DNA of 64,000 nucleotides from Octopus vulgaris (taxonomy: Eukaryota), in NCBI GenBank assembly GCA_951406725.2, contig OX597829.1, positions 19,778,001 to 19,842,000 of the forward strand. The letters run 5' to 3'. This document shows positions 120 to 62,509 of this stretch, piece by piece. The position numbers and the translations under genes are program-made. Positions within the stretch are counted from its first letter, which is position 1. Each line of letters starts with the position of its first letter. Below the pieces are notes generated by a model that had not been told where the DNA came from, made no database searches, and saw nothing but the letters and a program-made list of their open reading frames with translations.

Positions 120-373
120 AAACAATTGCAGTGTGAAAGATATTTGTAAGACATTCAAGAACACACAAAAACCATTAGTTTCACTTTGGCATTTAATTTT
201 CATTTGTGTCAAAATATTTTTGACAAAACATGATGCTAAATTAAATTTTGAAGTGAAACTAGTGGTTTTTGTGTGTTCTTGAATGGCTTACAAGTATCTT
301 CCACACTGCAGTTCTTTTTGTTTCAGCACACCATCTCAGACCAAGTCACTTGCTATGCAAGTACATTTCCATA
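120..373. repeat. Imperfect fold-back element (inverted repeat 127-310) between (TA)n tracts
   Basis: tgcagtgtgaaagatatttgtaagacattcaagaacacacaaaaacc... is mirrored by ...ggtttttgtgtgttcttgaatggcttacaagtatcttccacactgca, centred on gtcaaaatatttttgac. Confidence 0.8.
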
Positions 374-442
374 ATATATATATATATATACACATGTCTA
401 AACACATACTTACAATATACTTTCTCTTTTATTTCCTAACAG

Positions 443-535
443 TCAGTATCTTTTAAGAAATCCAGTGTCAATCTTGCTAGATCACTGTGGCGGAAAAATG
501 TAAAGATTTGCATTTTAATATTTATTGTCATTGTG
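443..535 (+). CDS. VAMP7: VAMP7 (synaptobrevin-like R-SNARE), penultimate coding exon
   Basis: Polypyrimidine tract and cctaacAG acceptor (441-442), GTAAGT donor (536-541). The 93-nt phase-0 exon encodes SVSFKKSSVNLARSLWRKNVKICILIFIVIV, matching the recalled vertebrate VAMP7 SNARE end/TM start (SVTFKTTSRNLARAMCMKNLKLTIIIIIVSI). Upstream exons lie outside the window. Confidence 0.93.
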
Positions 536-1332
536 GTAAGTTAAATCAAAACGTTTTTGCTTTTCTTTATTTTTGTTATTCATTGATTCAATGTGTTAAA
601 TATATTTCACCAGAAGATTTAGCTTTCATTGTGTCAACATTAATAGTGGCTGACCTATGTAAAAATGAACCTGAGAGATAGAAGGTTGTCATAGCTGGCA
701 GTGAGATTACTGAATCACAGACACTGGGTGCCTGCCCCTGGCACTACTCTTATTGTGTGTAGTACTAACACGATGAGTGTTATTCTTGTTAAAACAGTTT
801 GTTATGCATCATTGTACTTGCTGTGCTGCATGGCTGGTTGAAAGCGGCTTTTTTTCCAGTTTAATATCCTTTCCTGTTACCAGTCATTAGCAGAATAGAC
901 TGGTTATATCTGTCATTGACATTAGAAGACCTGCCTGGTTGGACTAAGAGACCTTTCTTGTCTGTATCTATACTACAGTAAGGAAAACTGCTTAATAATT
1001 AGTTAGGAGTATATGTAACTTTTACTAAAAGCAAGCAATTATTAAAGTCTCCACTGTCTAGAAAATTCTAGAGCCTCACGTGTATGGGGAAACCTACTTT
1101 TTTCTGTTGAGGGCTTATATACCCCATTATTAGACTATTTTCTTTAGTCATTGTGCGGTAACTATAAGCTTCAAGCTTATAAAATACTATTATTATTATT
1201 TACAGAATTGTAAAACTCAACACTGCTTAACAAAATCATTTGCAGTAAAAGCACATGAAAGTTTGTTTACAAAAACAACTACAAACTAATATAGTTCTTA
1301 AATCTGACAGAAAAATTAAAATATTTTTTTAT

Positions 1333-1553
1333 TATTTCTTTACTACTCACAAGGGGCTAAACATAGAGGGGACAAACAAGGACAGACAAAGGGATTAAGT
1401 CGATTGGATCAACCCCAGTGCGTAACTGGTACTTAATTTATCGACCCCGAAAGGATGTAAGGCAAAGTTGACCTCGGCGGAATTTGAACTTAGAACATAA
1501 CGGCAGATGAAATACCGCTAAGCATTTCGCCCGGCGTGCTAACGTTTCTGCCA
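1333..1553 (-). mobile_element. tRNA-derived SINE (family B)
   Basis: Minus strand has box-A-like TGGCAGAAACG and box-B-like GTTCAAATTCC. Homologous copies at 7840-9720, 18607-19490, 34660-34862, 45102-45295, 51170-51300 and 53576-54290. Confidence 0.85.
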
Positions 1554-1912
1554 TCTTATTTCTATGCATGTATATACTGATCAAGAATTTAGTTTGAATG
1601 TTCACTGCTGTCTACTTACTGTCATATGCAGAGGATAGGAGGAGGGAAATTCAGCATAAGTAGGGTAGAATCATAGTGATATGTGTGTGTGTGTGTGTGT
1701 ATGTATGTATATTATTATATGATTGAATGCCATGCATCCGTTTCCAACTGAGTTTTATCTTATCTATCTATATATATGTGTGTGTGTGTGTAGGTGGATA
1801 TGTAGATAAAAACTGAAATGTATTTGTGACTGTTTTACGTTTCTTATCCTTATTGTAAAATATGAATGAGAAATGTCCTTCTTTTTACTGATTTATTTAT
1901 TTGTATTTGCAG

Positions 1913-1978
1913 GTTGTTTTGTACCTGATAATATCGATTACATGTGGTGGACTTGATTGGCCATGCACCAGGAACTAA
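1913..1978 (+). CDS. VAMP7: VAMP7 terminal coding exon
   Basis: ttgtatttgcAG acceptor (1911-1912). In frame with the previous exon it reads VVLYLIISITCGGLDWPCTRN-stop, matching the VAMP7 C-terminus pattern YIIVS.LCGG.TWP.C. Confidence 0.93.
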   Translation, partial: VVLYLIISITCGGLDWPCTRN

Positions 1979-2187
1979 TTATGGACATGAAAGTCCAAAT
2001 GACCATTTACAGCCTGTTGTAGTTATTGTGAAACACAGACACAAATAGCCATATATTTACCCTATGGACGTTTTCAAATAAGAATACAAGTATTTCCTAC
2101 TCTTTCTCTCTGTCTCTAATTTCATTTAATTTCTACTTGAGATAACATATATATATTTTTGAATCTTTTTCACTAAATTTACTGCAA

Positions 2188-2193
2188 AATAAA
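2188..2193 (+). promoter_or_regulatory. Candidate polyadenylation signal of VAMP7
   Basis: AATAAA about 210 nt after the stop, followed by T-rich sequence. The hexamer is common in AT-rich DNA, so support is weak. Confidence 0.3.
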
Positions 2194-2384
2194 GAATAGA
2201 ATTTTCTTTGACATGTACTTTTTCTATGTAATATGCATTTGTTTATAAAATGCATACAAACAAGCATGATTATGATAAAGAATCAGATATGGCTGTGTGG
2301 TTAAGAAGCTTACTTCTCAACCATGTGGTCTTGATTTCAGTTTCACTGTGTAGTACCTTTGGCATGTGTCTTCTACCGTGTCTG

Positions 2385-2900
2385 GTAAGTTCACTGTGGA
2401 GAAAGTTCACCATCTTTGATTCACTGCAGGGAAAGTTCACTGTCAGCAATTCATTGCAGGGGAAGTCCACTGTCATCAATTCACTACAGGGGAAATTCAC
2501 TGTCATTAGTTCATCACAGATGAAGCCCACCATCATTAATTCACCATAGGGAAAGTTCACTTCATTAGTTCATCACAGATGAAGCCCACCATCATTAATT
2601 CACCATAGGGAAAGTTCACTGTCATTAGTTCATCACAGATGAAGCCCACCATCATTAATTCACCATAGGGAAAGTTCACTGTCATCAGTTCATCACAGAT
2701 GAAGCCCACCATCATTAATTCACCATAGGGAAAGTTCACTGTCATTAGTTCATCACAGATGAAGCCCACCATCATTAATTCACCATAGGGAAAGTTCACT
2801 GTCATTAGTTCATCACAGAGGAAGCCCACCATCATTAATTCACCATAGGGAAAGTTCACTGTCATCAGTTCATCACTGGCGAAATGCACTGTCATCAATT
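2385..2900 (+). repeat. Minisatellite: 30-bp monomers grading into about six copies of a 60-bp dimer
   Basis: Unit agggaaagttcactgtcattagttcatcacagatgaagcccaccatcattaattcaccat repeats nearly perfectly from about 2488 to 2880. It explains the repetitive ORFs at 2250-2898. Confidence 0.95.
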
Positions 2901-4230
2901 CACCTCCTTTTTTTTTTATATATATATATAATAGTTTTAACTATTAATGGTGAGATAATATAGATATATTTTGTTAGTAAAAATTCCCTATGGTGAATTT
3001 TCTTCATGTTGAATTGATGGCAGTGAATGTACCTGTAATCATCATCTATAGCCCCAGGCCAACCAAAGCCTTGTGAGTGGATTTAATTGACATTAAACTG
3101 GAAGAAGCCAGTTGTGTGTGTGTGTGTGTGTGTGGATGTGTTTGTGTGTACCTTTGCCTTGCCATCACATGATGGTTGTAAACATGTATCACTGTCATAT
3201 AACCAAGGTTTGTGCTTCCAGTCTCCCATGAAAAAACACATCAGGCCTTGGGAAAATTAATCTGCTCGGAAATGAGTAAGGGTTGACGACAGAAAGGACT
3301 TCTAGCTTTAGAAAATCAGCCCCAACTGACCCATTCAAGCATGGATAAGTAGATGCTAAAATGACGACATTGACTCTGAAGCGGGAGTATAGCTGGTGAC
3401 CTCCAATGGTTATGAAACTTTTAATTTCAGTCACTCCGGCAAGAATTCCTTTTCCACTTTTCTTTTGGATTACATTACCAAGGTGTAAAGACAAACAATG
3501 GACAAGGTCTTAAAATCTCAGCAGCTTGTGTGAGGAGAGTGTTTATTTCATAAATGCTTTCTCACAAAATTATTCAAAATTTAGAGTTAATTTTCTCATC
3601 TGTAAATGAAAACTTCATGAATTAATTTATTTTAATTTCTCTTGAGCTGTTTTTGATTTCCTACTATTATCACATACAACATATTAATCTGCTGAAGATA
3701 TCTAAAACAATAAATCTGGCATCATGCTTTACGTAGCTGTCATTCAGCCCTGAAGAAGCAGATTCCAGATCAAAAAATATCTATTCATTTCTCAGCATCT
3801 AAGTAATTAAACTTGGTAGTTCAATTGCTTTCTCTGACTTCATATCCTTAATGGCCCTTTTGATTGCATTACTGTTTGTTTCAGTTGCCAGTTTCGCCGT
3901 TAGTATTACATGGATTAGTGCCTCGTTTCACCTTGTCTTTTTGTTTTTTTGATCCCGTGTGTTCATTTTTTTTTTTCACAAAATAGATGTGGTTTGAAGA
4001 AAATTCAATACTTTTTCTAGGAAGTCAAATAATCTTGATCCCACTAAAGTTGTTGACTTTGCTTTTCAGTCTTCTGGGTCCAGTAAAAGAAGTATCATAG
4101 ACAGTAGGATTCAGTCATTTCACTATATATTTTTCTCCTAATGAAACACAAATTAATAACATTCATCATTATCATTTGATTATTTGAAACATTTGATAAT
4201 CATTTGATTGTTTAAAACATTGTCCCATAA

Positions 4231-4623
4231 GCGTAAGAGTGGCTGTGTGGTAAGTAGCTTGCTTACTAACCACATGGTTGCGGGTTCAGTCCCACTGCGT
4301 CGCACCTTGGGAAAGTGTCTTCTACTATAGCCTCGGGCTGACCAAAGCCTTGTGAGTGGATTTGGTAGACAGAAACTGAAAGAAGCCCATCGTATATTTG
4401 TATGTATGTGTATATGTTTGTGCCTGTATTTGTCCCCCCAACATCGCTTGACAACCGATGCTGGTGTGTTTACGTCCCCGTAACTTAGCAGTTCAGCAAG
4501 AGACTGATAGAATAAGTACTAGGCTTACAAAGAATAAGTCCTGGGGTCAATTTGCTCGACTAAAGGCAGTGCTCCAGCATGGCCACAGTCAAATGACTGA
4601 AACAAGTAAAAGAGTAAAGAGTA
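4231..4623 (+). mobile_element. tRNA-derived SINE (family A), full length
   Basis: Box A TGGCTGTGTGG, box-B-like GGTTCAGTCCC, internal TA/TG microsatellite and (agtaaa)n tail. Homologous to 5062-5505. Confidence 0.9.
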
Positions 4624-5061
4624 AATAATTACTTCTTATTAAGATCGTATTTTTTTTAAGGCAGATAAGCATTTGAAATAATATTAACAGAATATTGTAA
4701 AATTTTATATAAATAATTGGGAGATTGTTTTTTTTCTTTTGGTCTTCTGAGAGAATTAACTCATTGATTAAATTTATATTTAGTTTAGTTATTTATTATA
4801 CACTTTAGATATCTGCTTGTATCTATGCAGTAGAGTGGGATTTTTTTTTAAATACAATTATGCAAGTTTATAACAAATATAGGTGGACAATGCAAGTAAT
4901 TTACTTAACATTTTTTTTAAAAATATAAGTTATAATTGTACCCATGCATTTGCTGCCGCTGAGAAGAAATGTACTGCAACAGCATTTCTGTGCTACTGCA
5001 AGAGGTCGCTGAATGAGAATGCACGAGGGGAAATTGACTAGTGCATTCAGCAGAGGCTCCA

Positions 5062-5505
5062 CTTACTCTTTTACTTGTTTCAGTCATTTGACTGCGGCCA
5101 TGCTGGAGCACCGCATTTAATCGAGCAAATCGACCCCGGGACTTATTCTTTGTAAGCCCAGTACTTATTCTATCGGCCTCTTTTGCCGAAACCGCTAAGT
5201 GATGGGGACGTAAACACACCAGCATCAGTTGTCAAGCAATGCTAGGGGGACAAACACACACAAACACACACACATCATCATTTAGCGTCTGTTTTCCATG
5301 CTAGCATGGGTTGGACATACACACATATATATACATATATACGACAGGCTTCTTTCAGTTTCCGTCTACCAAATCCACTCACAAGGCATTGGTCGGCCCG
5401 GGGCTATAGCAGAAGACACTTGCCCAAGATGCCACGCAGTGGGACTGAACCCGGAACCATGTGGTTGGTAAGCAAGCTACTTACCACACAGCCACTCCTG
5501 CGCCT
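5062..5505 (-). mobile_element. tRNA-derived SINE (family A), full length
   Basis: Reverse complement of the 4231-4623 element with CpGs largely intact. Degraded copies at 2288-3370 (interrupted), 17760-18130, 26783-27085, 50356-50518 and 57345-57470. Confidence 0.9.
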
Positions 5506-5769
5506 ATGTACTCCACTTATTGAAGTTGAGTTATAGTTAAAAGGACCATGAAGGATATTAGCACAATTTGGCTGTTATAAAGATACTAAAAATATCTTCC
5601 AAAATAGGAAACAGTACTGAGCATCAGAATGACAATTGCTTGTACTCCATTTTACTGGTGCAGTAACACATCATAACTGTTGCAAGAATAAAGGAAATAT
5701 TCCAGAAAGAAGCAATTAAATAAGAATCAAATCAATGGCCTGCTAATAATTATGGCCTTTGCTCCTTAA

Positions 5770-19490: not shown

Positions 19491-21150
19491 ACTGGTAGTG
19501 CTTAGCACAGACTGTTTTCATGGATAATTTTCCAGATATTTATGTGACATAAACGTTTAGTTGTTTTGCTTTTAAGATAAAAAGTTCCTTGCTTGTTATA
19601 TTCATATTTTATTATGCTGTTACATTTTTTCCACTGTTTATCTGTTGCTTGCATAGCAAAATTTCATAATATATTTTTAAAAATTTTATATTAAATATTG
19701 AAGTGAATAACATTTTAATTACTACATCTTAAATAACATGTATTTTGCATTTATTCTTGAAAATCTTATTAGAAATTGATAAAACTGAAGTATAGGGAAA
19801 TGTTTACTTCTGAGAGATGTATTGTCAGCAAAAGTGTTAAAATCTTTTTTGATCACAAGTGAGAAAACTGCATAAGCTATTATTCAAGCAGACTTTAAGC
19901 TCTTGGGCTTAAAAGCCGAAGAAAGTAAACAAAGTAATAATACATGTTTTTATATCTCCTTGGGTAGAAAGAGCAGGACTGAACTGACTAAGTCTCTAGT
20001 TTTCTTAGATGTTAGTCAGAGAAAGACTATCCACCAGCTGTCAACAAAGATTATAGCTTATAGCTATTCATAATTATAATCAACTTATTAGCTATAATTA
20101 CATTCACAGTCTTTGTGGATAATTTGACTTTAGCTGAGTCCTAGTTACTATTTGCTACAAACAACTATAAGCTATTAATCTCTATCTGTTGATAGAAGAT
20201 GGATAATTCTTTTTCTGATGAAGGTGTAAGAATAGAAACCAGTTAGATTCTCCCTTTTTCTGCACACAGTAAAATAAAATCTGAGTGTAACTACCTTGTT
20301 CACTTCTCATAGCAATGTTAAAATAATATGTTTATCCAAAGAAGGGCACACTTTATATTTCAAATTATCCAAAATATTCCATGTAGTTCATTATATATAA
20401 ATTACCTGCATATGACCTCATAAACTTTAACAGATATGTGAACATGGCACAAAAAGAATTTAATAATCTTTCCTATCTTCTGTTTGTCTATTCATATTCA
20501 ATTAGTCCTCAACCCTTGATTTTCATTATATTTTCTCCTTCACCCAATGCCAGTCTATAACCGTCCCTTACTCTCACCTTACTCTTGCAACCCCTCCCCA
20601 TCTTCACTTCCTGCTCTTCTGGCACTCACCTAATTTTATGTGTTCTCCCAGCACCACCCTGGTTACTTCCCATCAACTCATCTACAATGTGCAAAGTCAT
20701 GTAGCACCTCCACAACAAGAAACTTGTTCTCTCCTGGCCCCTTCTTTCATACCTTAGTTCCATTCAACCTAAGGGGATCTAAGTTTCTGAGGTGCATAGT
20801 GACCTCACTAATGCTGGTGTCACAAAAAGCAAACCCATAGAAACACTAGATAACAATGCAGGCCTTGATTTCTTTGGATCCAGTCTAACCATCCAACTCG
20901 TACAAGCATGGAAGATGGACATCAAAAGCTGATGATAGCGATAACATACAAACATACGTAAAGCATCGAACACTTATACAAACCTTCAAAGTCGTTAATC
21001 TATTAGGATTCAGACTAAGAGATTGCTATTTTTTGGTTTTGAAACATTTGCATAAAAGCTAAATGCCTTTTGTATACATACAATATCTTTTATAATAATC
21101 CTCAAACCAGCTAAATATCATGAATACAATAGATTCCTCAACATACATAC

Positions 21151-31943: not shown

Positions 31944-32586
31944 TTAACCCTTTAGCATTCACATTACTCTGTCAAATGTAATAATTATTTATTCATGTTG
32001 TTTTAAATTAATTGTGCATTATCTAGTAGTTTTGAAATTTCAATGATGTGATCGTTTATTTTTAGAATGACATTGAAAGGTAAGTGCAAGAAGCTAGATC
32101 TGGCCAGTTTGAACATAACATGGGTAGAATATTTTAGCCAGATATGGCCAGTTTAAATGCTAAAGTGTTAACCATTTAACAATCAGTTTATTCAGTCAAG
32201 CATAATGCTTCTTTATTCAAATTGGTCAGAATTAATAATGCATTATCTCACTGCTTCTAGATTTCAATCATGTGATATATTTTTAGAATATTACATGGTA
32301 GATGTGAGAGGCCAAGTTTCAGTCAGTTTGAATGTAAAACATGTAGAATATTTGGGTCTGATATGGCTGATTTAACATTTTAGCATTTAAACCAGCCATA
32401 TCCAGCCCACATATTCTACATGTTTTATGCTCAAACTAACCAGATCTGGCCTCTCACATCTGCTCTAGAATGTCATATTAAAAATATACAACACATCATC
32501 AAAATCTCAAAGTTATGTGATAATACATGATTATTTCAAAACAATATGAATAAATAAGCATTACAATTGATAGAGCAAAGGGTTAA
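31944..32586. mobile_element. Three abutting family-D MITEs joined at TTAA sites
   Basis: Copies at 31944-32171 (+), 32168-32375 (+, truncated) and 32372-32586 (-). Junctions are shared TTAA tetranucleotides. Confidence 0.8.
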
Positions 32587-34610: not shown

Positions 34611-37221
34611 CATATATGTGTGTATATATCTATCTGTCTGTCTGTATATTATATATCCTTTTATACTATAGGCACAAAGCCTGAAATTTTGGGAGAGGCT
34701 TCCAGTTGATTAAATTGACCCCAGTATGCAACTGGTACTTAATTTATTGATCCTGAAAGGATGAAAGGCAAAGTCGGCCTTTTTGGAATTTGAACTCAGA
34801 ACATAAAGACAGGTGAAATACTGCTAAGCATTTCACCCTGCATGCTAACATTTCTGCCAGCTTTCCATGCTGGTATGGATTGGACGATTTGACAGAGGTT
34901 GGTTAGGCAGAAGACTGCAGCAGGCTTCACTGTCTGTTACAGACATATCTTTTATCTTTTACTTGCTTCAATCATTAGACTGCGACCTTGCTGGGACACC
35001 ACCTTGGAGAATTTAGTTGAGTGAATCAACGCCAATACTTATTCTATCGATCTCTTTTATCAAACTGCTAAGTTACAGGGACGTGAACAAACCAACACCA
35101 GTTGTCAAAAGGTAGTGGAAGACAGACAAACAAAAACAAAAAGACCCTCACAAATAAATGTGTTTCTTTCAGTTTCTCTCTACTTGATTTCTATTACTTG
35201 ATTGTTTACTTTTTAAAACAACATTGTAGGATAGATGTGAGAGGCCAGATCTGGCCAACTTGAACATAAGACAGTGAGAATATTTTGCCCAGATATAGTT
35301 GGTTTAAATGCTAAAAGGTTAAACCAGTTAAAACTCTGCATTGTGTTTAAATCATATCTTATGTCCTGCAATGTAGCAGTTTGATGTACTGTTAGGTTTG
35401 ATTTGATCAACTTGGTGTCCCAGCATGGTTGCAGTCTATAGGAATAATACTATTCTATTATTTCCTTAGGAATATCATCAATGCAAGTTCAAACCTCAAG
35501 AGAAAACTCCCATTATAACCCATACTTCTCCATGCAAGTTGTCTTGTTTCTTTTGAATGCAGTGTAGACCGTTTGTCACTGAGTTCAACAGTTCAATATA
35601 CAAGAACATTATTCTATTATTGGATAGACTGTAGTTCATAAGTAGAATTTTTAGAACATTGACTACTTTCCAATTCATTTCAGCCAGACAATTTTCTTTT
35701 TTACGGAATGATTTTTCAACTGACACTAATTCATGTACTCAACCATCCTATTTATATTCTGATCCCTGTCCCTTTTGAGTATGCTCGGCACTTTGCCATG
35801 ATCTATATCCTGCTGTCTCCCACTCTCTCTCTTTCACTTCCCTCAGGTTGGGTAACCATGTATCTCCTTTGTGGTAGCCCACCTGTTTCTGTCCTCATTC
35901 CTGATCTCTCTCTCGCTTGCTCTGGCCAGGTAACATTGTACCTCCTCTACAGCAAGACACCTGTTTCTATCTCTCTGTCTCACTATAAACTTTCATCATC
36001 TGACACAATATCACCTCATCCAATGTCCCTTCCCTTCTCAAAATATTTTTGTCTTGCAAGTTACTTGGTGACTGTCAGTGCAGGTGCCACTTAAAAACCA
36101 TCCAATCCACACTGGAAGGGCACCCAGCTGTAAAAACTTAGCCCAAACTGACTTCACTTGTGCTTATGCTATGTAAAAAGCACTAAGTCCACTCTGCTGG
36201 GTGGGAGGTGTTAGGAAGGGCATCAAGCTGTAAAAATCCAGCCAAAACAGTCACAGAAATCTGGTGCAGGCTTTTACCTGACTGGCAAAGTGTCCCATCC
36301 ATGCCAGCATGGAAGGCAGATGTTAAATGATAATGATGACTAATTCATGTACTGTGTTTTAATTTCATTTCAATTAATTTCACAACAGTTGCTGAGTCAA
36401 GGTTAAGTAATTAATGAAATGTCATTTGGTGGTTGTGACAGTGAATCTGCTATACAGACATTCAAAACCATGTCCTGAGAAAGGCCACTTAATTGAATGA
36501 TACAAAATCATTCACTTATACAATCCAACCTCTGGCCCGTAGGCATGTTATTTCCTCTCTCTTTCTACTGCTACTACTGCGATCTCTATTAGTTTCCCTA
36601 TAGAGTAATTAGTCATTAGATCAGCTGAATTACCTGCTCATTTTATTAGCATGTTAAGTGAAGCCGAACATTCAACATATACCATTAATGTAATCCTCAG
36701 ACAGAATCATCATGACATGCCGATCCTTTCAATTATAGGTTCAATCCGTCCAACTGCCTTCCACAGAGTTTCGCCAGTTTCATTTCACAAGGCTTAAATT
36801 GACCCAAGGCAATGACAACAGACATTTACCAAGAAGTGATACATTGGAATCAAAATCTAGAACTTTGTAATAGCAAAGAAAACTTCTTAACTATTTAGCC
36901 CCAAACATATTCATTGTCATTTTCTTAACATAAAACATCTTAAACCTGTATAGTACATCACAACTAATAGTTTGTATTATTATCAACCCCAGAATTTGAT
37001 TGGCTTGAGAGAATAAATGAAAAGCAAAGTTGTTTTTTCTCCTCCCAGGAAATAATAGGAGTTAATGCCAGTCAAAAGCTGAAGTTGAACATACCAATTT
37101 CACTTTTCCCAAAAAGTGTGGATTTGTGCTAATGTTAAACATCATCTTTATTGTAATTTCAATTATTATTATGGTTCAGTAACCGCCCATATCTTGTTTC
37201 TAATATGAAATAGAAATGATA

Positions 37222-37259
<38 letters not shown>

Positions 37260-37581
37260 GAGCAAAACAAGCCAGGGTGCTAATGGATTTATAACATGGG
37301 GGATTTGGATGAAGAAGGTTAAGGCCCTAAGGACAACACCCGAAACAATGGTATATGAGCATCTAAACGGCATAATCTTTGTAGATATGCTTTTTAATTT
37401 TTTGTACGTTTCCTCGCATACTGTTATTTTCTATTATTTTGGTGCCTTCCGGCAGTTGAACTGGGACTTCAGCTCTCATTTCTAAATTCTGATGCTCACT
37501 GCATCCTTAAGGTTTCGTGCTAATTTTATATATGTATATATATTTTCTATAATTTCTATTTCATATTAGAACCGCTATTTA

Positions 37582-37619
<38 letters not shown>

Positions 37620-37620
<1 letters not shown>

Positions 37621-37777
37621 TTTATTTTAAGCAGCAGAAAATTCAACAAAATCTGTTACTCTGAGTTTCTTGTTGCCGTTCATCAGACAGTTTTTGCTAG
37701 CAAAAACTGTCTGATGAACGGCAACGAGAAACTCAGAGTAACAGATTTTGTTGAATTTTCTGCTGCTTAAAATAAAG
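37620..37777. repeat. 158-bp spacer-less palindrome, one mismatch
   Basis: Centre gctagc at 37696-37701. Arms ctttattttaagcagcagaaaattcaac... and ...gttgaattttctgctgcttaaaataaag. Confidence 0.97.
37707..37744 (+). ncRNA. Minimal type-I hammerhead ribozyme-like motif (second copy on minus strand)
   Basis: ctgt-CTGATGA-a-cg-gcaa-cg-a-GAAA-ctc-a-gag-TA-acag. Helix I is ctgt/acag, helix III is near-palindromic, and the cleavage triplet is GUA. The helix II base pair is non-canonical (A.A). Confidence 0.55.
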
Positions 37778-37994
37778 CATATTACTCTACCACTGGTATT
37801 TGAGTACTCTTTTTTCCACCTTGTTTCACATTTATGTGTTTACTCCGGTATATATATATATATATATATATATGGCAGTTAGCAGTCCATGAGTCAGAAG
37901 AAAAAAACACACACTAATAGAGAACATACTACTCAACAATATAAGAGTGTGTGTGTATGTAAAGCTCAAAAAGTACAGTAAAAAAGATACAAAC

Positions 37995-43036: not shown

Positions 43037-43217
43037 ATAATGATGATAATGAAATTATTGTGCATACTGCTCAGGTGCACTACAACTCATCAAAGGTGCA
43101 TGTACAGTATGCAGAATTATGTTCTTGATTTTTGTACATAATTCTATGTACTGTATGTGCACCTTTGATCTGTTGTGGTGCACCTGAGCACTACACACTA
43201 TAATTTCATTATTATTA
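43037..43217. repeat. Palindrome built from two CR1-like 3' ends
   Basis: tgctcaggtgcactacaactcatcaaaggtgca... is mirrored by ...tgcacctttgatctgttgtggtgcacctgagca. The arm matches the CR1 tail at 46305-46345. Confidence 0.85.
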
Positions 43218-46276: not shown

Positions 46277-46814
46277 TAATAATAATAATAATAATAATAA
46301 TAACATTGTGTACAGTGCTCAGGTGCACTACAACTCATCTAAAGTGTATGTATAATCAGGTGTAGTTTCGGCGGATTTCGGAAAGCATGAGGGCCTTAAA
46401 GGATGCAGTGTCATGGCAGTCAACAACTGACGCAGGCAGTTTATTCCATGCTTCAGCAACTCTGAGCGTGAAAAAATGTTTCCGAAAGTCATGGGAGCTG
46501 TGTTGTTTTCTGACTTTGTAGGCATGTCCACGTGTGTTAGACACATGGAGATCAAAAAGGTGTTCAGTGTTGTTGTTGGTGAGGTGGTTGATAACTTTGT
46601 GGGTGTTTACCAAGTCCATCGCCAGACGCCAGAGCTTCAGTGAATCCATGCCCAGGGAAACAAGGCGTTCAGAATATGGTAGGTGTCTGATGGAGGGTAT
46701 GCGTTTGGTTGCGTGTCTCTGGACAGATTCCAGGAGGTCAATGTTCTGAGCAAGATAGGGGTTCCAAACTGATGATGCGAATTCCAAGTGTGGTCGTACC
46801 ATAGCTGTATACAT
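46277..46814 (-). mobile_element. 5'-truncated CR1-type LINE (ORF2 C-terminus intact) with (TTA)n tail
   Basis: ORF 46356-46814 has VRPHLEFASSVWNP, LESVQRHATK, TRGH and RKHFFTLRVAEAWNKLP, hallmarks of CR1/L2-group RT C-termini. Confidence 0.92.
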
Positions 46815-46834: not shown

Positions 46835-47850
46835 TAAACAAGCTTGTTAGAGACCTAGAAGACACAAACATTATTACAATTTCTATAGATGCTTCAAAAC
46901 AGAAAATATGTTAACGTTACACTTTACTGGTTGAGGGTACAAATAAAATTTTTTGATATGCACATTATCCTATTGACATGTCTAAGATCCTGGGAGTGCC
47001 TGAGTCTCAGTTATTGACAGTCACAGATTAGAAGGAAAAAATGTTGTTAGATTTTATGGTGACAACTGTAACAGAAATTTAGTTGGAGTATAATGAAAAG
47101 GCAAGAGCCTTTTATGTCATAAAAAAAAAAGAACAACAACTTTGAAATTATATTATTGGCATTGGTTTTGGTGCATACTTTGTGTATAACTGTCTCTAAA
47201 ACAGTTGTTGATACTAAAGCACTTATGAAAAATTTCAAACTTTTCACATATACACAGTTCATGTTACACAGATGAAGGAATTCTGTGACTTTGTCTGACA
47301 TGAATATGCAAAGCTGTAATAATATGGTAAAAACTCATTACTGTCTACGTTCTCAAGTGCAGAATAATGCATAAACAGTGTGAATAGGATATTATCCTAA
47401 TATTGCAGAAAAATTTGTCGGCGACCAGCCATCTCAGAGATGTGCGTTCAGGTCTCGTGGCTGACCACTGACAAATTTTTCTGCAATATAAGGGTAATAT
47501 CCTATTCATGCTGTTCGTTCATTATTCTGCACTTGAGAATAAATTATCTCCATATCTGTATAGTTCAATACATCTCAACACTTCCTACTGTTCATATTAA
47601 CTGCAATTAAAAGAATTCTTTTAATTTTTGTTGTCTTAAAATTTTACTTCTCTTTCCAAAAACGCCACTTTGAATTGATGTGATAATTTTTTGGAGGAAA
47701 AAGATCTTTGAGAACTGTATTTATGGTTTGTAAAAGGACAGCTCAGCGTATTCATCAAAGGAATTCCGACCATGGATTTCTGACAATGCCAATGCAGCAG
47801 ATTTAAAACTAGAAATGCAGAACCTGAATATTATATTTGATTATGAATTT
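46835..47850 (+). pseudogene. Degraded DNA-transposase relic, probably hAT-like
   Basis: Fragments ITISIDASK, FYGDNCN, IGIGFGAY and FHIYTVHVTQMKEFCDFV, interrupted by the hairpin at 47350-47539. Confidence 0.45.
47350..47539. repeat. Hairpin element, about 82-bp arms and 26-nt loop
   Basis: ttctcaagtgcagaataatg...ccagcca and tggctg...cattattctgcacttgagaa. Confidence 0.9.
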
Positions 47851-48780: not shown

Positions 48781-50030
48781 GAGTTGGCAGCTGATACTGT
48801 ACATTTGTAAATGGTAATTTTAGTAAGATAGTGATTATCTGAAGGGCAGAAGGTTGGGCATCTGCAGCTGCATAGGATCACAGGGGGTGTTGTAGCTGAA
48901 TTGGTGGGGTGATTGTTATTTAGTGAAAGACCGCTGTTAGGTTCATTATCAGTGGTGTCATTAAAATTGGTATTTATTAGGGAGTTAAGGGAGACATCAG
49001 TAGGTTGTATATGATAGTTTTTATGTCCAATGTTACTGTCTATATCATTCTTTATTTCTATACGAGGTAAAGTTAGGTTGTGAGGTAGGCTTAAGGATTG
49101 GGTGTTAGTAATGGAATTATAGTTGGAGGTTTGAGGGTTAGTGTTGGTAAGGGGGTTTATTGGTGTTCTGGGTGGAGGTTTATATGTATGGAGCTAGGGG
49201 CCAGGGTAAGTTATGTTATTAGGGTGAGTGTTAGCTATTTGTGGGTTTCTAAGTTTCTTATTACTCTGGTAATGTTGGTGGTGGTGGTGGAGTAAGACAA
49301 TTTTATAGATTAGGGGTTAAAGATTTTTCTAAGGGGGCTGGATTTAGGGAAATGTTTTACAAGTAGGGAAAAGAAGAGTTTAGGTACTTGAGTTTGAACA
49401 TTAAGGGTAAAGTGGGATGGAACCAGATAACATCATGGGTTTTTGTTTGTTTACTCCAATTAAAGGGGTTATCAGAGTATGGATAAGGCTTTGGAGGTGC
49501 ATACTGCTGTTGATTTTGGTGGGTGATGACATATTTAGGATTTAGGACCATCTGGTGGGAGGATTGCTTATTAGGTCATCAGCTACTTTGAAATTTCGAA
49601 GATTAGTGGAGCAGTGAGAAATGGAAGATATTTTGTGCTCTATTTGTTGGAGGTGGGGCAGAACTGTTCTTGGTTCGGGTTAAGCGGAGGGAGGTTTATT
49701 CCACATGGGGATATATTCAATTGAATCTTTATAACCAGCACGTTATAGGGCACAATTATAGTATTCTGTATATTTCCTTATTTGTGGACAGTGAGGAAAT
49801 CTGGTAGGATATGCTCTCTATAATAGATTTTAGAATGGATGGGTGGTGGTTGAAGGGAAAGGTGATGTAATTGAGATTCATGCCAGGTTTGTCGTATGGG
49901 CAGAAATTTTGGTTTTGTAATTCTAGAGTGATGTCTAAGAAATTAGCAGCTTTAAGGTTGTTACAGGAGAATCTAAGGCTGATGTTTCTAAAAAAGTCTC
50001 TTATTCTTTTTCCACTCTGTTTCAAACTTA
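47880..50030 (-). mobile_element. Degraded Penelope-like element (RT C-terminus plus GIY-YIG endonuclease)
   Basis: NFLDITL and NHHPSI (RT), VIWFHP, CSC..CP, IYKCTV..YI(R)S, FKARVSNHYTSF, TSLS, LKWSI, CDLC, LN..CHH. Multiple stops. Confidence 0.8.
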
Positions 50031-50602
50031 CATTTATATATATATATATATAGTGATAAGAGTAAATAATTTCTATAAAGGCTTTTAAAAAAACCCCAAT
50101 TATTTACTGGTAGAATTCGGTATGTAAATATAGCCGATTACCGGCAGGAACTTCTGTAAAGTTCAGTATATATATTGTATATAAGAAGAAGGGACAGGCA
50201 AAACAGGTTGCTTGACCGCATACCGAAAAAATAGAAATAGCAGTCAAGAATGCTTATTTCTATCAAAGTTGGACTCCGGGCATGACAGACCCTGTAATTC
50301 ACATATACAGGGTCTGTATATGTGAATTATATATATATATATATATATATATATTCTTTTATTTTTTATTTGTTTCAGTCATTTGACTGCAGCCATGCTG
50401 GAGCACTGCCTTTAGGCAAACAAATCAACCCTAGGACTTATTCTTTGTAAGCCACGCAGTGGGACTGAACCCAGAACCATGTGGTTGGTAAGCAAGCTAC
50501 TTATCACACAGACACTCCATTTCTAATATAAGGATAAAATTTTTCAAAAACAATTATATTAGTGGCCAGCATATTAAAATACCTTTTAAGAGAAAAATTA
50601 TA

Positions 50603-50919
50603 AATAATTATAAATAAGAGCAAAAGAAAACAATTTTCTATGCCAATATGCTGAAAAATAGATTTTAGATTGTCTAACTACAAACAATATTTTTCACGAT
50701 AAATACACAGCTGATGAAGGAAAAATCCTTTTGGATTAATCCAGAAATTGGTCTGATTCAAGGATAACGGAATTTTAAACATTTCTGTTAGCTTGCTTTC
50801 CTCGTTTCAGCATGCTGTGTATTTAAAGCGAAAGATATTTTATGCAGTTAGACAATCTAAAGTCTATTTTTCAGCATATTGGCAAAGAAAATTTTTTTTG
50901 CCCTTATTTATAATTATAT
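50603..50919. repeat. Inverted repeat (about 105-bp arms) enclosing a hammerhead-like core
   Basis: Arms 50603-50711 and 50815-50919. The spacer begins CTGATGA (50711-50717) and has GAAAttggTC at 50744-50753. Confidence 0.8.
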
Positions 50920-51386: not shown

Positions 51387-51463
<77 letters not shown>

Positions 51464-51466
<3 letters not shown>

Positions 51467-53088
51467 TTGCGGCCAAAATGTTCAGAACGGCATTGTTTTC
51501 GTCAGAAAAGTAGGTATAAGTTTTTATCAAAGTTGTTTTATATTCTATAATTTTCACAGACAATAAATACGATATTATTTGTTGTTGTCTGAGATTTTGG
51601 TGTAATTTGAGAGGATAATACAAAAGTTATGGATGATTTAGTGATTTACTGCAAAACCCATGGTGGCCAAAATGATCAGAACGGTTGCTTTTACTCCATG
51701 TTTTAGTATATTTAACCGTCGAACTCTAATGTTTTGAATTTGTTTACGTGACAGTTCGTTTACTAAACATTAGTAAGAATATCTGCAGTGTACTTTGTTA
51801 ATATAATGCCACTTACTCAGTTGCCAATTCATCAGCAGATTATTAAGCTTCGAAAGAAGGATATTTTAAGTATTAGGTCTATTGCAAAGATTGTTAACAA
51901 GTCAAAAAGTGTTGTTCACGGTATTCTTAAGGTCTACGATGATTGTGGTTCGTGTGAAGCAAGAAAGTCTACAGGTAGGCCAAGAAAAACGACCAAAAGA
52001 GAAGATCGTGCTATGGTAAAGTTGGTTAAAAAGGACAGATTTAAAACTGCTGCTGCTGTTTTTCGGGAAATGAGCATTGTACTGAAGAAAACTTTATCTC
52101 GAAAAACTGTGTCTCGTCCTTTAGTTGAACATGACCTACAAGCAAGAGCACCTGCAGTGAAGCCACTGATCAAATCCAAGAATAAAAAGTGTCGTTTTAC
52201 CTTTGCAACCTGTGTTGTGGTCTCAAGAAAAATGGCAAACGGTGCATTTCAGTGATGAATCTAAGTCTATGTTATTTGGCTCAGATGGGAAAAGGTATGT
52301 TCGTTGAAAAGCAGGTGAAAAATTGTCACCTAAATGCCTTAAGCCTAGTGTTAAATTCAGTGGAGGAAGTGTCATGGTTTGGGGGATGATATCTGGAGAT
52401 GTTGTGGGCCCTTTGCTGCGATTACATGGAAAGGTAAATGCAGGAGTTTATAAACAACTTGTAAAAGATCATGTCTTGCTTGTGCTGAGAAATTCAACTA
52501 AGCGACCACCCATATTCATACAGGACAATGCTCCATGTCACAAGGCTAAGGTGGTCATGAACTTTCTCAAGGCTGAAAAGGTTATTGTTATGGATTAGCC
52601 TGCTCAAAGCCCAGACCTCAATCCTATAGAAAATGTGTGGAATATTCTAGGAGAACGTTTGAAAGCCAGAAATCCTAAGTCAACCGAGCAATTATAGAAT
52701 GCCCTTCAGGAAGAATGGAATAAGATCACCCAGCAAGAAATTGAAAATTTAATTTCCCCATGCAGTTGAAAATGTCAAACTTTGATTGAAGCTAAAGGGC
52801 TTCACACTAAATATGAAATAATTCCAGCATTCTCCGTCACTTTTTGATTATTTTGTTATTTTTTCAACCGTTCTGATCATTTTGGCCACCATGGGTTTTG
52901 CAGTAAATCACTATATCATCCATAACTTTTGTATTATCCACTCAAATTACACTAAAATCCCAGACAATACCAATTAATATCGTATTTATTGTCTGTGAAA
53001 ATTATAGAATATAAAACAACTTTAATAAAAACTTATACCTACTTTTCTGACAAAAACAATGCCGTTCTGAACATTTTGGCCGCAACTG
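51464..53088 (+). mobile_element. Full-length Tc1 transposon, IR/DR type
   Basis: TA|CAGTTGCGGCC...GGCCGCAACTG|TA. The 224-bp TIRs (51464-51687, 52865-53088) each hold two ggccaaaatg(t/a)tcagaacgg direct repeats. Confidence 0.97.
51806..52817 (+). pseudogene. Tc1 DD34E transposase pseudogene
   Basis: HTH plus GRPRKT, FSDESK, GGSVMVWG, QDNAPCH and SPDLNPIENVW, with exactly 34 residues between the second D and E. Frameshift near 52210 and several premature stops. Confidence 0.93.
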
Positions 53089-53130
53089 TATCATCATCAT
53101 CATTTAACGTCCGCTTTCCATGCTAGCATG

Positions 53131-57623: not shown

Positions 57624-57927
57624 CACATGTGCATATATAAAGATACTTATATATAATAAAGGTGAAAAATTGAATATTAATTAAATTAATATCAATTTAA
57701 AACAAGTGGTCTAGCATATTAAAATCTGAAGATACAGAAAAATTATATTACATGCATAACATATAGGAGGGATAACCACTATGTGGACATCCATATGCTA
57801 GAAGTAGATCCATTCTAGTATATGGATGTCCACGTAGTGGTCATCCCTCTTATATGTGTGTGTGTGTATATATATATATATATGTATATATTATATATAT
57901 ATATGTGTATGTATGTATATATATATA

Positions 57928-57961
<34 letters not shown>

Positions 57962-58439
57962 CATACATTCTAGCATATTGATGTTCATGTAGTGGTCATC
58001 CCTCTTATATGTACATATATATATATATATATTTGCATACATACATACATACATACATACATATACACATATATATATGTGTATGTATATATGTGTGTGT
58101 GTATGTATGTGTGTGTGTGTGTCTGTCTGTCTGTCTGTCTGTGTCTGTGTATATATTTCAAATTTATAGAAAATTTATAGAAAACTGAACACGAAAACAG
58201 ATGAAGGAACAACAAGCAGATGTATTTGTTTGATGCTCGGAAAGAATGGAAACATCATTGGCGTTTTAAGCTTACAGTTTTTGAAAGAAAGTGATGAGAG
58301 GAAGAAAAATGGCGAGGGAGTGAAAAGAAATGGGGAGAGAAAAGATGTGTAGAGATTAATGGTTCAACATGATGAAAAAAATATATATATACATATATAT
58401 ATATGTGTGTGTATATATATATATATATATATGTGTGTG

Positions 58440-59223: not shown

Positions 59224-59270
<47 letters not shown>

Positions 59271-59273
<3 letters not shown>

Positions 59274-59654: not shown

Positions 59655-59892
59655 TATGTACGTAAATCGTCTAAAAGTCCACAAGCCAGGAAAAAGATGC
59701 ACTTGTATATCTGTCAATAGAGTGGGTATGTTATCTGAAGTGTACAGTATTATATATCCATCATGAACTTACCAATCAGTTTTGCACTAGGGGTGCAATG
59801 CAGTGTTAGGTAACAGTCTGATTATATAACCCTACACTCATCAGAGGTAGCCAATATGAAATGAAACATGGAGACTGCTCTCAACAATAGAG

Positions 59893-60153
59893 TGTGTGCG
59901 TGTGTGTGAGTGTCTGTGTGTGTGTATGTGTCTGTGTGTGTGACAGAGTGTGTGTGTATGTAAGAGTGTCTGTGTGTGTGTATGTTTATATACTATATAG
60001 TGAGTAGAAACTCCCCACTGTGAGTTTATATACTATATAGTGAGTAGAAACTCACAGTGGGGTGAATGGTTAAAGGGAAAAACCTTCAGCAGAAGAATTC
60101 CTGTCGAGTTTTTCAACCTGTTAGTTCCTGACACTCTAAGGACAGTATATATA

Positions 60154-60232
<79 letters not shown>

Positions 60233-60434
60233 TAAAGTGTCAGGAACTAACAGGTTGAAAAACTCGACAGGAATTCTTCTGCTGAAGGTTTTTCCCTTTA
60301 ACCATTCACCCCACTGTGAGTTTCTACTCACTATATAGTATATAAACACACACACACACTCTTACATACACACACACACTCTGTCACACACACAGACACA
60401 TACACACACACAGACACTCACACACACGCACACA
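59893..60434. repeat. About 540-bp inverted duplication centred on (TA)n
   Basis: Arms 59893-60144 and 60227-60434 are near-identical reverse complements, including the irregular GT-rich microsatellite. Confidence 0.95.
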
Positions 60435-60837
60435 TATATATATAGAAAATAGTAAAAAGTGAAAAAACTACAGAAGGCTTGTTTTAAAAGGTTAAAAAAT
60501 ATATATTTGAGTCATTATGTCAGAAGAATGTTATAAATTTTTTTCATACAGTGACATAGTTTTTGAAGAAATTACCAGTTTCGTGTTTAACTTTTCAAAT
60601 TTCTCAAAACATTGTTATGATTTCGTTTAAGAAGTGTAAAGAAGAATTCCAGGTAAGAGGAGGTAATAAGTGATTTCTTCCGGTGTAAGGGAGATAATCG
60701 CTTTATATTTCTTGCCTTTTTAAAAAATTTAATGGGGTGAGTTTCTCTGTATAAGAATGTTAGAGTGGTTAAGTTTGGGCTTATATTTTTCAATGAAGAA
60801 TGTTTCCTTGTTTAGTCTAATTTGTGTTGGTGTTCCA

Positions 60838-62209
60838 ATAGAGGCAATACAGTTCTGGCTGGACCAATTTCCGGCAGAAATACCAAAAAGGATCAGTAAA
60901 GAATTCATTACTAAATCAGTTGAATTCATCCTACATAATAACGACTTCATGTTTGACAGTACATTTTACCGTCAAAAATCCGGAATTGCTATGGGTACAA
61001 GGGCAGCACCAGTCATCGCGAACCTAACAATGGGCTACCTGGAAATAATTATTTACCAGGAATCTTTATCAACCTTTGGAAACTCCCTCTCTCAATACAT
61101 AAAAGAGAATTGGAAACGATTCCTGGACGATTGTTTTATACTCTGGAATGAAAACACAAATAAACTCCTAAAATTCAAAAACCTATTGAACAGCATCAAC
61201 CCAAACATACAGTTCACAATGGAATACAACCAAAAGGAGCTCCCATTCTTAGATATACTAATTAAAAAAATTAACCTTAAAATAGAAACAGACATTTTTT
61301 ACAAAGCCACAGATGCCAAACAATACCTACTTTTTGATTCATGCCACCCAAGACACACTAAAACAAACATCCCTTTCAACCTTGCAAGAAGGATATGCAC
61401 AATAGTGTCAGAACAAAATACCAGGAACTTTAGACTACAAGAACTCAAAAACACCCTAATTGACAGACACTACCCAGCTCAACTCATAGAGGATGGGATC
61501 AGACGCGCAACAGAAATCAACATAGAAACTTTGAGAAAAGTTCAACACAACAACACACCTTCCCCGAAAATACTGCCTTACATATCCACATACAACCCCA
61601 GAAACAAAGAAGCCTTCACCATCATCACCCAGAATTTACCAATAGTTCATAAGGATCCCAAATTAAAGGAAATTCTAAACATACATAAAATCATTAAAAG
61701 CTACAAACAACCTAAATCACTTAAAAAGATTCTCACAAAGGCAAAATTGCTTTCTGATATTACGGATGCAAAAGTAAAAAAAATGTGGTAGATCAAACTG
61801 TGCAACATGCCCAAACCTTCTAGAAGGATCAGAATTCCTCTTCAAAGAGGGACAAAAATTCAAGATCAAATCTAATTTTACTTGTGCCTCTGAAAACATA
61901 ATTTATGTCATAAGATGCTCGGGCTGCCACCAAAACTACGTGGGGTCCACGGGACTATCACTCAGACGTAGATGCACACTGCATCGACAACAGATTGCAT
62001 TCCCAGAATACAGAATGATATCCTTTAGTGAGCATATTGAGAAATGCGCAAAGCAACTACTACCACAATTTTTAATCTTTCCATTTTATCAATGTGCTAT
62101 CGGAACACCAACACAAATTAGACTAAACAAGGAAACATTCTTCATTGAAAAATATAAGCCCAAACTTAACCACTCTAACATTCTTATACAGAGAAACTCA
62201 CCCCATTAA
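60838..62209 (+). pseudogene. PLE reverse transcriptase plus GIY-YIG endonuclease, broken by one frameshift
   Basis: GIAMGTRAAP, RFLDD, LPFLDI and SCHP. An A8 run at 61776-61783 shifts the frame; the second frame reads CGRSNCATC...NIIYVIRCSGCHQNYVGST...R..LH...H...E...LN with no stop until 62209. Confidence 0.93.
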
Positions 62210-62333
62210 ATTTTTTAAAAAGGCAAGAAATATAAAGCAATTATCTCCCTTACACCGGAAGAAATCATTTATTACCTTCCCTTACCTGGAACTCTTCTTT
62301 ACACTTCTTAAATGAAATCATAACAATGTTTTG

Positions 62334-62370
62334 AGAAATTTGAAAAGTTAACACGAAACTGGTAATTTCT
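62334..62370 (+). ncRNA. Minimal hammerhead ribozyme-like motif with U3-A8 core variant (second copy 60567-60604, minus strand)
   Basis: agaaat-TTGAAAA-gt-taac-ac-GAAA-c-tg-g-TA-atttct: 6-bp helix I, short helix II and GUA triplet, located in the PLE terminal repeat. Confidence 0.6.
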
Positions 62371-62509
62371 TCAAAAACTATGTCACTGTATGAAGAAAAT
62401 TTATAACATTCTTCTGACATAATGACTCAAATATATTTTTTAACCTTTTAAAACAAGCCTTCTGTAGTTTTTTCGCTTTTTACTATTTTCTATATATTCA
62501 ACCACGTGC

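Follow-up and report, generated by a model that had tools for sequence, protein, structure and literature searches.

Fold-backs in the window

The window, that is, the whole stretch of 64,000 nt analysed here (Octopus vulgaris, GCA_951406725.2, OX597829.1, positions 19,778,001-19,842,000 of the forward strand), contains nine inverted duplications. All had been proposed in an earlier note, and all nine intervals (9/9) are real, with matched columns far above those of random window segments. The arms match in 78/87 columns at 127-310, 125/174 at 19919-20310 (an old pair, overlooked by blastn), 78/79 at 37620-37777, 71/82 at 47350-47539, 104/116 at 50603-50919, 40/44 at 57760-57856, 223/224 at 59893-60434 and 392/401 at 60438-62497; at 37198-37571 the match is strong over 45 bp only, and about 40% of those 45 bp are TA. 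Null draws scored as high as the real arms 0-5 times in 300 per interval, and these high-scoring draws are probably resamplings of the element itself. Arm identities range over 72-99%, and the fold-backs differ widely both in age and in the family to which they belong. The features are as follows.

120..372, + strand: head-to-head stub of an autonomous Penelope-like family with C-terminal EN; 27/27 pairs short plus long
19919..20310, + strand: old inverted pair of a low-copy family; arm identity 72%, remnant core at 20215
37198-37242/37527-37571 (within 37198..37571), no strand assigned: TA-centred flank palindrome, 45 bp
37620..37848, + strand: hairpin stub of a young Hydra-clade Penelope-like element; autonomous parent found
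37700..37752, + strand: minimal type I hammerhead motif; core 37711, predicted cut after 37740
47350..47591, + strand: inverted stub of an old ~300-bp tandem monomer; Penelope-type short/long ends, 5/5 pairs
50518..50919, + strand: member of a hammerhead family, inserted head to head; tandems occur in the family as well; 9/11 pairs short plus long
57650..57856, no strand assigned: head-to-head stub of a tandem-monomer family; 15/16 pairs short plus long
59893..60434, no strand assigned: recent locus-specific inverted duplication of ~250 bp of flank, centred on (TA)41
60438..62516, + strand: 5'-truncated Penelope-like element with Neptune-type linker, cut by a LINE
62327..62375, + strand: minimal type I hammerhead motif with U3-A8 core, inside the pLTR
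318-372, 37778-37848, 50518-50602, 57650-57759 and 62491-62516: Penelope tails

Where one arm outruns the other, as had been noticed before, the overhang is the Penelope tail. In the Penelope-type elements the (TA)n tracts said to adjoin the fold-backs do lie beyond the arms; in 37198-37571 and 59893-60434 they occupy the centre. These two, in the first case the 37198/37527 arms, stand apart from the seven others as local duplications at a TA tract. 59893-60434 consists of a GT repeat and the end of an old repeat, its five candidate relatives are 72-91% identical and single-armed, and it is a local duplication rather than a mobile unit. In the TA tract between the 37198/37527 arms sits a copy of another hammerhead family (37260-37525), its 5' stem I strand deleted.

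Seven of the nine fold-backs have Penelope-type anatomy or belong to a hammerhead-bearing family. They do not, however, constitute the single window-wide system that had been suggested: arms of different elements share homology neither with one another nor with the pLTR at 62097-62497, and fold-back density is unremarkable, with 9 in the window versus 38 in the flanking 200 kb (a count that excludes 60438-62497 owing to its 1.2-kb loop). The notion that they might be assembly chimeras is contradicted by the recurrence of the same exact junction at 144 loci, with flanks that differ among the copies read. Opposite-strand joints are also present at the same places in contigs of the public run X16, a run that may not be assembly-independent. 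Among 134 window frames Pfam reveals no convincing host exon; since it overlaps a CA repeat, a COX7a match at 3049-3240 is regarded as spurious.

Parent families and their hammerheads

The hairpin at 37620-37848 is made of an inverted short arm (37620-37700) and a long arm (37697-37848) that ends in the tail; the arms meet at a self-complementary CTAG, and (TA)n tracts (37590-37619 and 37849-37873) bracket the whole. Its parent has a period of 3352 and an intact 727-aa ORF bearing Hydra motifs, in which RT is followed by GIY-YIG (motifs read from the translation; the ORF has no Pfam and no PDB match). Like the Hydra clade (PMC8557442; here and below, published work is cited from the accessible parts of the sources), the parent combines a single ORF and GIY-YIG at the C terminus with RWK and DKT, with CxxC and CxH in the EN, a hammerhead and TA targeting, TA flanks being present on 92/106 arms of the family. 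Unlike that clade, whose members are generally <3 kb and have a CxCX5C linker, it has a period of 3.35 kb and, in the one copy translated (L152), CxFX5C, with Phe at the second Cys; looking for the linker motif in other copies yielded nothing. Genome-wide the family has 3674 exact 34-mer cores, and its short fold-backs number 729 loci with an 8-38-nt gap versus 97 with a 39-68-nt gap.

At 120-372, a short arm (120-~215) is joined to a long arm plus tail reaching 372, followed by (TA)n. The parent again encodes RT and then GIY-YIG (motifs read from the translation), and such short fold-backs occur at 652 loci. The family hammerhead has a G3-C8 core, unlike the PLE hammerheads and retrozymes described in the accessible literature; the window copy is without the core because its fold-back falls at the palindromic stem III.

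The third element, 60438-62516, comprises an inverted pLTR copy (60438-60841, the short end), a body (60842-62490) and a long end with tail to 62516. RT and GIY-YIG frames of the body are broken at an A run near 61780, and GIY-YIG in 61778-62206 gives a weak Pfam match (E 7e-4). Its translation contains the CX2-5CxxC linker and the CCHH in the C-terminal EN of Neptune, an assignment that we treat as provisional, the linker being found in Nematis as well. The parents of 37620, 120 and 60438 all exhibit the RT plus GIY-YIG ORF and one-ended tail of EN+ PLEs, with pseudo-LTRs in partial tandem or inverted, variable 5' truncation and, as a sequence motif, a hammerhead in the pLTR.

No parent ORF was found for the 19919, 37260, 47350, 50599 and 57760 families. 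Tandems are present in relatives of the 50599, 57760 and 19919 families. At 50518-50919 the tailed long arm is on the left and the short arm on the right; the core at 50711 is decayed, the junction having taken the place of its 5' stem I strand. The 57650-57856 stub has a further arm at 57960-58011, and its family hammerhead lies ~170 nt upstream of the portion retained. The 47350 monomer harbours a tRNA core within an extended stem (in the relative L098 the tRNA scores 36.7 bits in Rfam against a cut-off of 29), and a hammerhead was looked for in this family and not found. Its tRNA-derived segment has A and B boxes, as in SINEs; the tRNA-head start and LINE-type tail of a SINE are missing; copies continue through the tRNA head into the tandem monomer and have short/long ends.

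Our own type I descriptor demands a long stem I and thus lets short-stem motifs (e.g. that of the 19919 family) escape. With stem I of at least 8 it returns 5 matches in the window versus 0.5 in shuffles; in its strict form it finds no intact hammerhead in 46 of the 47 fold-backs counted in the window plus flanking 200 kb. Rfam yields zero hammerheads among 117 window matches at E<=10. By the descriptor, intact type I motifs are confined to 37711(+)/37686(-) and 62340(+)/60598(-), a match at 19757 being doubtful. The 37700..37752 motif, mirrored on the minus strand with its core at 37686, has a weak stem II of 2 bp and a near-palindromic stem III. The 62327..62375 motif, mirrored on the minus strand with its core at 60598, is of a type with 31 matches, partly overlapping, over the fetched loci. 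The earlier note had seen hammerhead-like cores in four fold-backs; intact hammerheads persist in just two window copies, and at 20215, ~37309 and 50711 the hammerhead of the respective family is present in decayed form. In the 19919 family the consensus forms a minimal type I hammerhead. The association of hammerheads with hairpins holds at the level of the family, in seven families.

Two fixed ends and a variable junction

Each family has two fixed 3' ends, a short and a long one; each insertion has one of each, and junctions are variable. Short and long ends are paired in 57/60 Hydra hairpins (a sample deliberately rich in the CTAG junction, with gaps <=38 nt only) and, in one further family, in 6/7 pairs. 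Arm lengths are concordant in 36/38 pairs, with 22 short-short, 14 long-long and 2 mixed versus 18 mixed expected (loci that are decayed, complex or duplicated are not among these 38, and by-eye correction was applied to some end points). The r58 allele is found on both arms in 16/46 hairpins and on a single arm in 0/46.

In two families 5' ends pile up sharply at a TATA/initiator-like site, and in the 120 family G is in excess beside it. Nearly half of the Hydra arms (47/106) end within a 28-nt window directly 5' of the ribozyme, a density of 168 per 100 nt versus 1-11 elsewhere. These ends are mostly at -16 or -14, with no visible G and a less ideal TATA-like motif, and the wall is leaky, since 29 of 50 listed loci, judged by eye, extend past -19. 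In the 120 family TATA lies exactly -30 from the arm stop site, and the first non-parent base is G in 13/16 truncated copies. A start-site wall was also looked for at the hammerhead of the Neptune-type family, where only one short fold-back locus was found. We infer from the DNA that the pile-up site is the transcription start and that the G would be a copy of the cap, which is likely for the 120 family. Microhomology with the partner arm or flank is an alternative source of an extra G, and the one in L309 ends a target duplication. Pile-up at the ribozyme cut site, which would point to cleaved templates, was checked over 179 loci with both arms ending downstream; among the 50 listed, 10 stop by eye at r29-30 versus 9 at r18-21, all confounded by microhomology.

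We consider it likely that most fold-backs are dead-end head-to-head insertions of several unrelated Penelope-like families, twin-primed and, in the case of the short ones of two young families, generated by cap run-off. A (TA)n target would be nicked and two reverse transcriptions primed on opposite strands, at two fixed sites of the same source RNA; in those short hairpins, both cDNAs would run off the capped 5' end of the RNA and be joined to each other by microhomology. The hammerhead would be carried along because it is located between the start and priming sites. The stubs have no upstream promoter, and the ribozyme in any read-through RNA is predicted to be locked within the hairpin. 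Of the two origins considered in the earlier note, ORF-less Penelope integration products formed at each insertion describe most of the small hairpins, parents having been found for 37620 and 120; a hairpin that moves as a fixed unit does not, fold-back points proving variable on testing.

Twin priming in L1 involves two primings on opposite target strands and joining by microhomology; here, in contrast, the two arms would derive from one and the same stretch of RNA, each started at its own fixed site encoded by the element. Retroviral strong-stop DNA arises by run-off at the capped 5' end with an extra G, but in the octopus the short product is itself integrated.

Mirrored alleles and concordant arm lengths would equally fit one cDNA copying itself. 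Such self-priming (snap-back), perhaps with an antisense strand as template, has been proposed for rotifer Penelopes, and short arms would then mark a pause at RNA structure; palindromes are indeed common at junctions (PMC3846280). We nonetheless find this improbable. The furthest 5' reach in Hydra hairpins belongs to either arm, and in about half of the -16/-17 junctions it is the tail-less arm that reaches furthest, so that under snap-back the tail would be template-less. Moreover, both outer ends are fixed sites adjoining TA, and the pile-up matches TATA/initiator spacing and falls past the far stem I strand rather than where stem I is entered.

There is still less to be said for a view of the short palindromes as non-autonomous mobile units of a retrozyme or MITE kind, for which a few master hairpins would serve as originals to be copied entire. 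A hairpin template would recreate its own centre, one exact junction does recur, and the 158-bp palindrome has an identity of 99-100% to its best 40 matches. However, that junction accounts for only 144 of the 729 short fold-backs, beside many other junction types, and falls on the parent's self-complementary CTAG; both r58 alleles occur within the same junction classes, and the stubs are without upstream promoter motifs. In place of the fixed symmetrical TIRs and fixed length of MITEs and fold-back transposons, ends differ and spans vary. For the tandem non-coding monomers of the 50599, 57760 and 19919 families a retrozyme interpretation may hold, but it does not suit hairpins taken as units: what the window has are lone inverted stubs rather than tandem monomers with a complete hammerhead each.

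That the hairpins are a host-used dsRNA system supplying ADAR or Dicer strikes us as very unlikely. The 229-nt unit (37620-37848) is predicted to fold to a 77-bp hairpin (-136.7 kcal/mol), and Penelope inverted repeats yielded siRNAs in transformed Drosophila (PMC3681739). Yet elements of differing age and family decay like neutral debris, the window frames offer no convincing host exon by Pfam, and the A>G/T>C differences of putative RNA contigs recur in run X16. Many of the short palindromes of the octopus genome would be by-products, not purpose-built RNA devices, and could be incidental dsRNA sources. Least credible of all are TA-cruciform repair products or assembly chimeras with no retroelement link, which would suit TA-centred 59893-60434 (unique to its locus) and the 37198/37527 arms but not the other seven, in families with hundreds of copies or family-specific ends and tails.

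Relation to known systems

Inverted Penelope ends are already known, and EN+ PLE insertions have been described with an inverted 5'-truncated pLTR and an optional tail, self-priming being favoured or the mechanism left open (PMC8557442; PMC3846280); how the tandem and inverted structures originate has, by the account of PMC8557442, yet to be defined. The octopus insertions resemble these in having an inverted truncated copy beside a direct copy, a one-ended tail, partial tandems, (TA)n targets, TATA and initiator motifs in the pLTR and microhomology junctions. They differ from the accessible descriptions in that the tail, 35-110 nt long, is almost always on exactly one arm and in that short arms pile up at the predicted start site. 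In vitro, Anolis Poseidon PAc has a tail bordered by two RT start sites, both internal; cutting and extension take place on each strand of the target, targets are AT-rich and the main template is uncleaved RNA (PMC11167929). The octopus families would share these features; in the accessible part of that source inverted insertions are unexplained and no RNA 5'-end run-off is reported. For PLE minimal type I hammerheads, palindromic stem III, U3-A8 covariation and opposite-strand dual hammerheads 100-700 bp apart were previously noted (PMC4209133; bioRxiv 10.64898/2026.07.22.740005).

Twin-primed cap run-off would explain the long-puzzling inverted ends of Penelope elements. We have not found cap run-off for Penelope in print: strong-stop, cap, twin priming and head-to-head are absent for Penelope from the titles and abstract openings searched, subscription papers and supplements lying outside the search. 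The supplements of PMC8557442 may already list these octopus families. The young families provide hundreds of natural junctions discriminating two primings from self-priming; these junctions link the tail to a strict rule of one per insertion, and with nothing but DNA they appear to locate the transcription start. The cap run-off model also gives direct predictions for the in vitro PAc system and 5'-end RNA data.

A bolder extension, which we offer tentatively and hold to be rather doubtful, is that Penelope has a retrovirus-like strong-stop. The protein would start two cDNAs close to the 5' end of the capped RNA that encodes it. Where that RNA is linear, the pair would run off at the cap and be integrated as hairpins; long copies would need a hammerhead-made circular or multimeric template, and the same machinery would spread a ribozyme-free, tRNA-cored tandem RNA. 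Our literature search found tRNA-derived PLE passengers in no title or abstract opening. The tandem non-coding monomers of the 50599 and 57760 families are like metazoan non-LTR retrozymes (bioRxiv 10.64898/2026.07.22.740005; PMC7229834). The tRNA-cored 47350 monomer, in which no ribozyme was found, is unlike the known PLE hammerheads and retrozymes of the accessible literature, and has the same insertion ends; its tandem RNA might be a retrozyme analogue that host tRNA-processing enzymes could cut to monomers.

Fold-backs of the window

All nine inverted duplications listed in the earlier note proved genuine on re-examination, although the pair at 19919-20310 is old and the strong match between the 37198/37527 arms is limited to 45 bp. 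Their density is ordinary for the region (nine in the window versus 38 in the flanking 200 kb). Microsatellites and transposon remnants abound throughout, and Pfam found no convincing host exon in 134 window frames, which is still compatible with a long intron. The fold-backs do not, as had been proposed, constitute a single hairpin system, because the arms of separate elements are mutually unrelated in sequence. As for the suggestion that several carry hammerhead cores, a descriptor scan found intact type I motifs in both arms of 37620-37777 and 60438-62497, whereas an Rfam search of the window returned no hammerhead. Four further stretches come from hammerhead families:

50518-50919, element from a hammerhead family
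57650-57856, element from a hammerhead family
19919-20310, element from a hammerhead family
37260-37525, insert from a hammerhead family

Three of these four families have tandem relatives, and no ORF turned up in the vicinity of the copies searched. At 47350-47591 lies the stub of an old tandem monomer of ~300 bp whose tRNA-like core (Rfam 36.7 bits) sits inside an extended acceptor stem, the anticodon being GGT in several copies (L096, L098, L240-L242, loci elsewhere in the genome). No ribozyme was detected in this family, which shares Penelope-type short and long insertion ends. The 59893-60434 fold-back is locus-unique and TA-centred, its arms 99% alike versus 72-91% for relatives, and TA is also central to the 37198/37527 arms. 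We read both as local fold-backs at TA tracts, possibly linked to an adjacent Penelope nick.

Two fixed ends and a probable single source per insertion

The hairpin at 37620 is a 229-bp unit flanked by TA tracts. Near-unchanged copies occur elsewhere in the 2.8 Gb genome searched, as do exact copies of its 34-nt ribozyme core (3674 in all). Its parent, recovered from tandem copies, has a period of 3352 bp and one 727-aa ORF with reverse transcriptase (RT) and endonuclease motifs, RWK, DKT, CxxC and CxH, in agreement with the Hydra clade of Penelope-like elements as described in section 11 of PMC8557442, except that the linker of the translated copy deviates at one Cys. Another Hydra-like RT survives as a degraded fragment at 49759-50326 (32% to the protein of L152, a family locus), and a short palindrome (50295-50329) adjoins it.

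With r0 set at the core's first base, short arms of the Hydra family terminate at r66 and the long, tail-bearing ones at r137; TA adjoins 92 of 106 arms. The pseudo-LTR (L152) has AATAAA at r60-65, on the short end and ~77 nt past the predicted start, a placement reminiscent of the poly(A) signal in the retroviral R region. One end of each kind is present in 57 of 60 short Hydra-family hairpins, and short-plus-long pairs were counted in families named after other window copies:

120 family, 27/27
50599 family, 9/11
57760 family, 15/16
60438 family, 6/7
47350 family, 5/5

Since the tail of an Anolis Penelope-like element is bounded by two RT start sites, with both target strands extended (PMC11167929, in part), we read the short and long ends, by analogy, as two priming sites.

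The fold-back points, which might have been fixed or variable, are variable, ranging from a few bases to more than 3 kb, and we read the hairpins as formed anew with every insertion. No exact junction is commoner than that of the 37620 hairpin, present at 144 loci among 729 short fold-backs; it coincides with a self-complementary CTAG of the parent. One might imagine that a single cDNA folds back and primes itself, as proposed in part of PMC3846280. Against this, it is the arm lacking the tail that extends furthest 5' in roughly half of the -16/-17 junctions, and there a single fold-back cDNA could not supply the tail. Short hairpins might instead descend from palindromic masters. Among 46 clean hairpins, however, the A/T allele at r58 occurs in both arms of 16 and in a single arm of none, where a random draw of two templates should give mismatched arms in ~45%, and both alleles are present inside the same junction classes. 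Together, mirroring and shared classes speak against such masters and favour a single source RNA or locus for each insertion. Two near-identical hairpin insertions in opposite orientation, 60 kb apart (L167 and L168, C1:67410113-67470693), are probably part of a larger inverted duplication.

Arm ends at the ribozyme

Of 106 Hydra-family arms, 47 end within r-26 to r+1, or 168 per 100 nt versus 1-11 elsewhere, in a sample (70 partly overlapping loci drawn from the first 100 matches to the core on C1) that requires one intact core and hence misses insertions with both arms shorter, of which 179 exist. In a set of 60 hairpins whose gaps do not exceed 38 nt, enriched by design for the CTAG junction, none passes -17. 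Gaps of 39-68 nt occur at 97 loci, and because 29 of the 50 listed extend beyond -19 (by eye), the wall is not absolute but amounts to a fall of roughly tenfold. Arm lengths are matched: 38 pairs, excluding decayed, complex or duplicated loci and with some ends corrected by eye, comprise 22 short-short, 14 long-long and two mixed, where 18 mixed were expected. Set against the promoter consensus motifs (CCAAT, TATA, initiator), the parent sequence 5' of the wall shows a motif resembling each, and the initiator-like site has its A at -17.

The family of the 120-372 element provides a second case. Its hammerhead combines a G3-C8 core with a palindromic stem III, and its long copies encode an RT plus GIY-YIG ORF. 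In this abundant, autonomous family (loci L298-L338) the putative ribozyme has U at the cut position. There are 652 short fold-backs immediately 5' of the ribozyme, the furthest ending (by eye) at, or a few bases from, one A that sits in an initiator-like setting and has its TATA at exactly -30. Among 30 copies selected because they reach this A, 14 run on into the parent, the other 16 being truncated (one of these 20 nt further upstream). The first non-parent base is G in 13 of the 16, directly before the A in eight. Copying of a cap leaves an extra G as its signature; here it can also be supplied by microhomology. The window's own copy is shorter, folding back at stem III. No comparable wall was seen at the ribozyme of the Neptune-type 60438 family (one locus).

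We consider the following course likely as a whole, its first and last steps being those we infer. RNA polymerase II would start in the pseudo-LTR, just 5' of the ribozyme; an element protein would nick a TA tract on each strand; and two cDNAs would be primed, one at the short and one at the long site. Where the sites near the RNA 5' end are used, the copies would terminate by run-off at the cap, about 85 and 155 nt long, pair over 1-4 bases and become integrated as a hairpin lacking a promoter; a longer or circular template would leave both arms long. The ribozyme would be a passenger: most templates were apparently uncut, no pile-up of arm ends at the cut site is evident by eye among 50 listed of the 179 loci with both arms ending downstream, and folding predictions give the 229-nt RNA a single 77-bp hairpin (-136.7 kcal/mol), the hammerhead motif being weak alone (-9.7 kcal/mol; -21.6 paired with a second copy).

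Precedents and other repeats in the window

Parts of three papers already describe inverted truncated pseudo-LTRs with a tail (PMC8557442), junction palindromes and promoter motifs of Penelope elements (PMC3846280), and minimal hammerheads on opposite strands, including U3-A8 variants (PMC4209133). Neither cap run-off nor a tRNA-cored passenger was found in a search of the open literature. The worth of these elements lies in junction evidence on how inversions form. A dsRNA role for the hairpins is plausible by analogy, given the precedent in part of PMC3681739.

Other repeats accompany these elements. The tail of Penelope element 60438-62516 is interrupted by a LINE (62517-64000) that carries RT and a PHD-like finger. 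At 43043-43215, and absent from the earlier note, two LINE 3' ends bearing ATT tails lie inverted to each other; a further end of the same LINE is at 46291-46814. At 31964-32578, where no hammerhead was found, a common repeat is present in inverted copies, and it recurs at least five more times in the window; two inverted copies of a common SINE-like repeat (79% over 446 bp) lie at 4226-5508. A Tc1/mariner element with a broken transposase (51461-53091) has 227-bp terminal inverted repeats (96%) and TA tracts on both sides, and a minisatellite with a 30/60-bp repeat, about 17 units long (2403-2904), has frames open on both strands.
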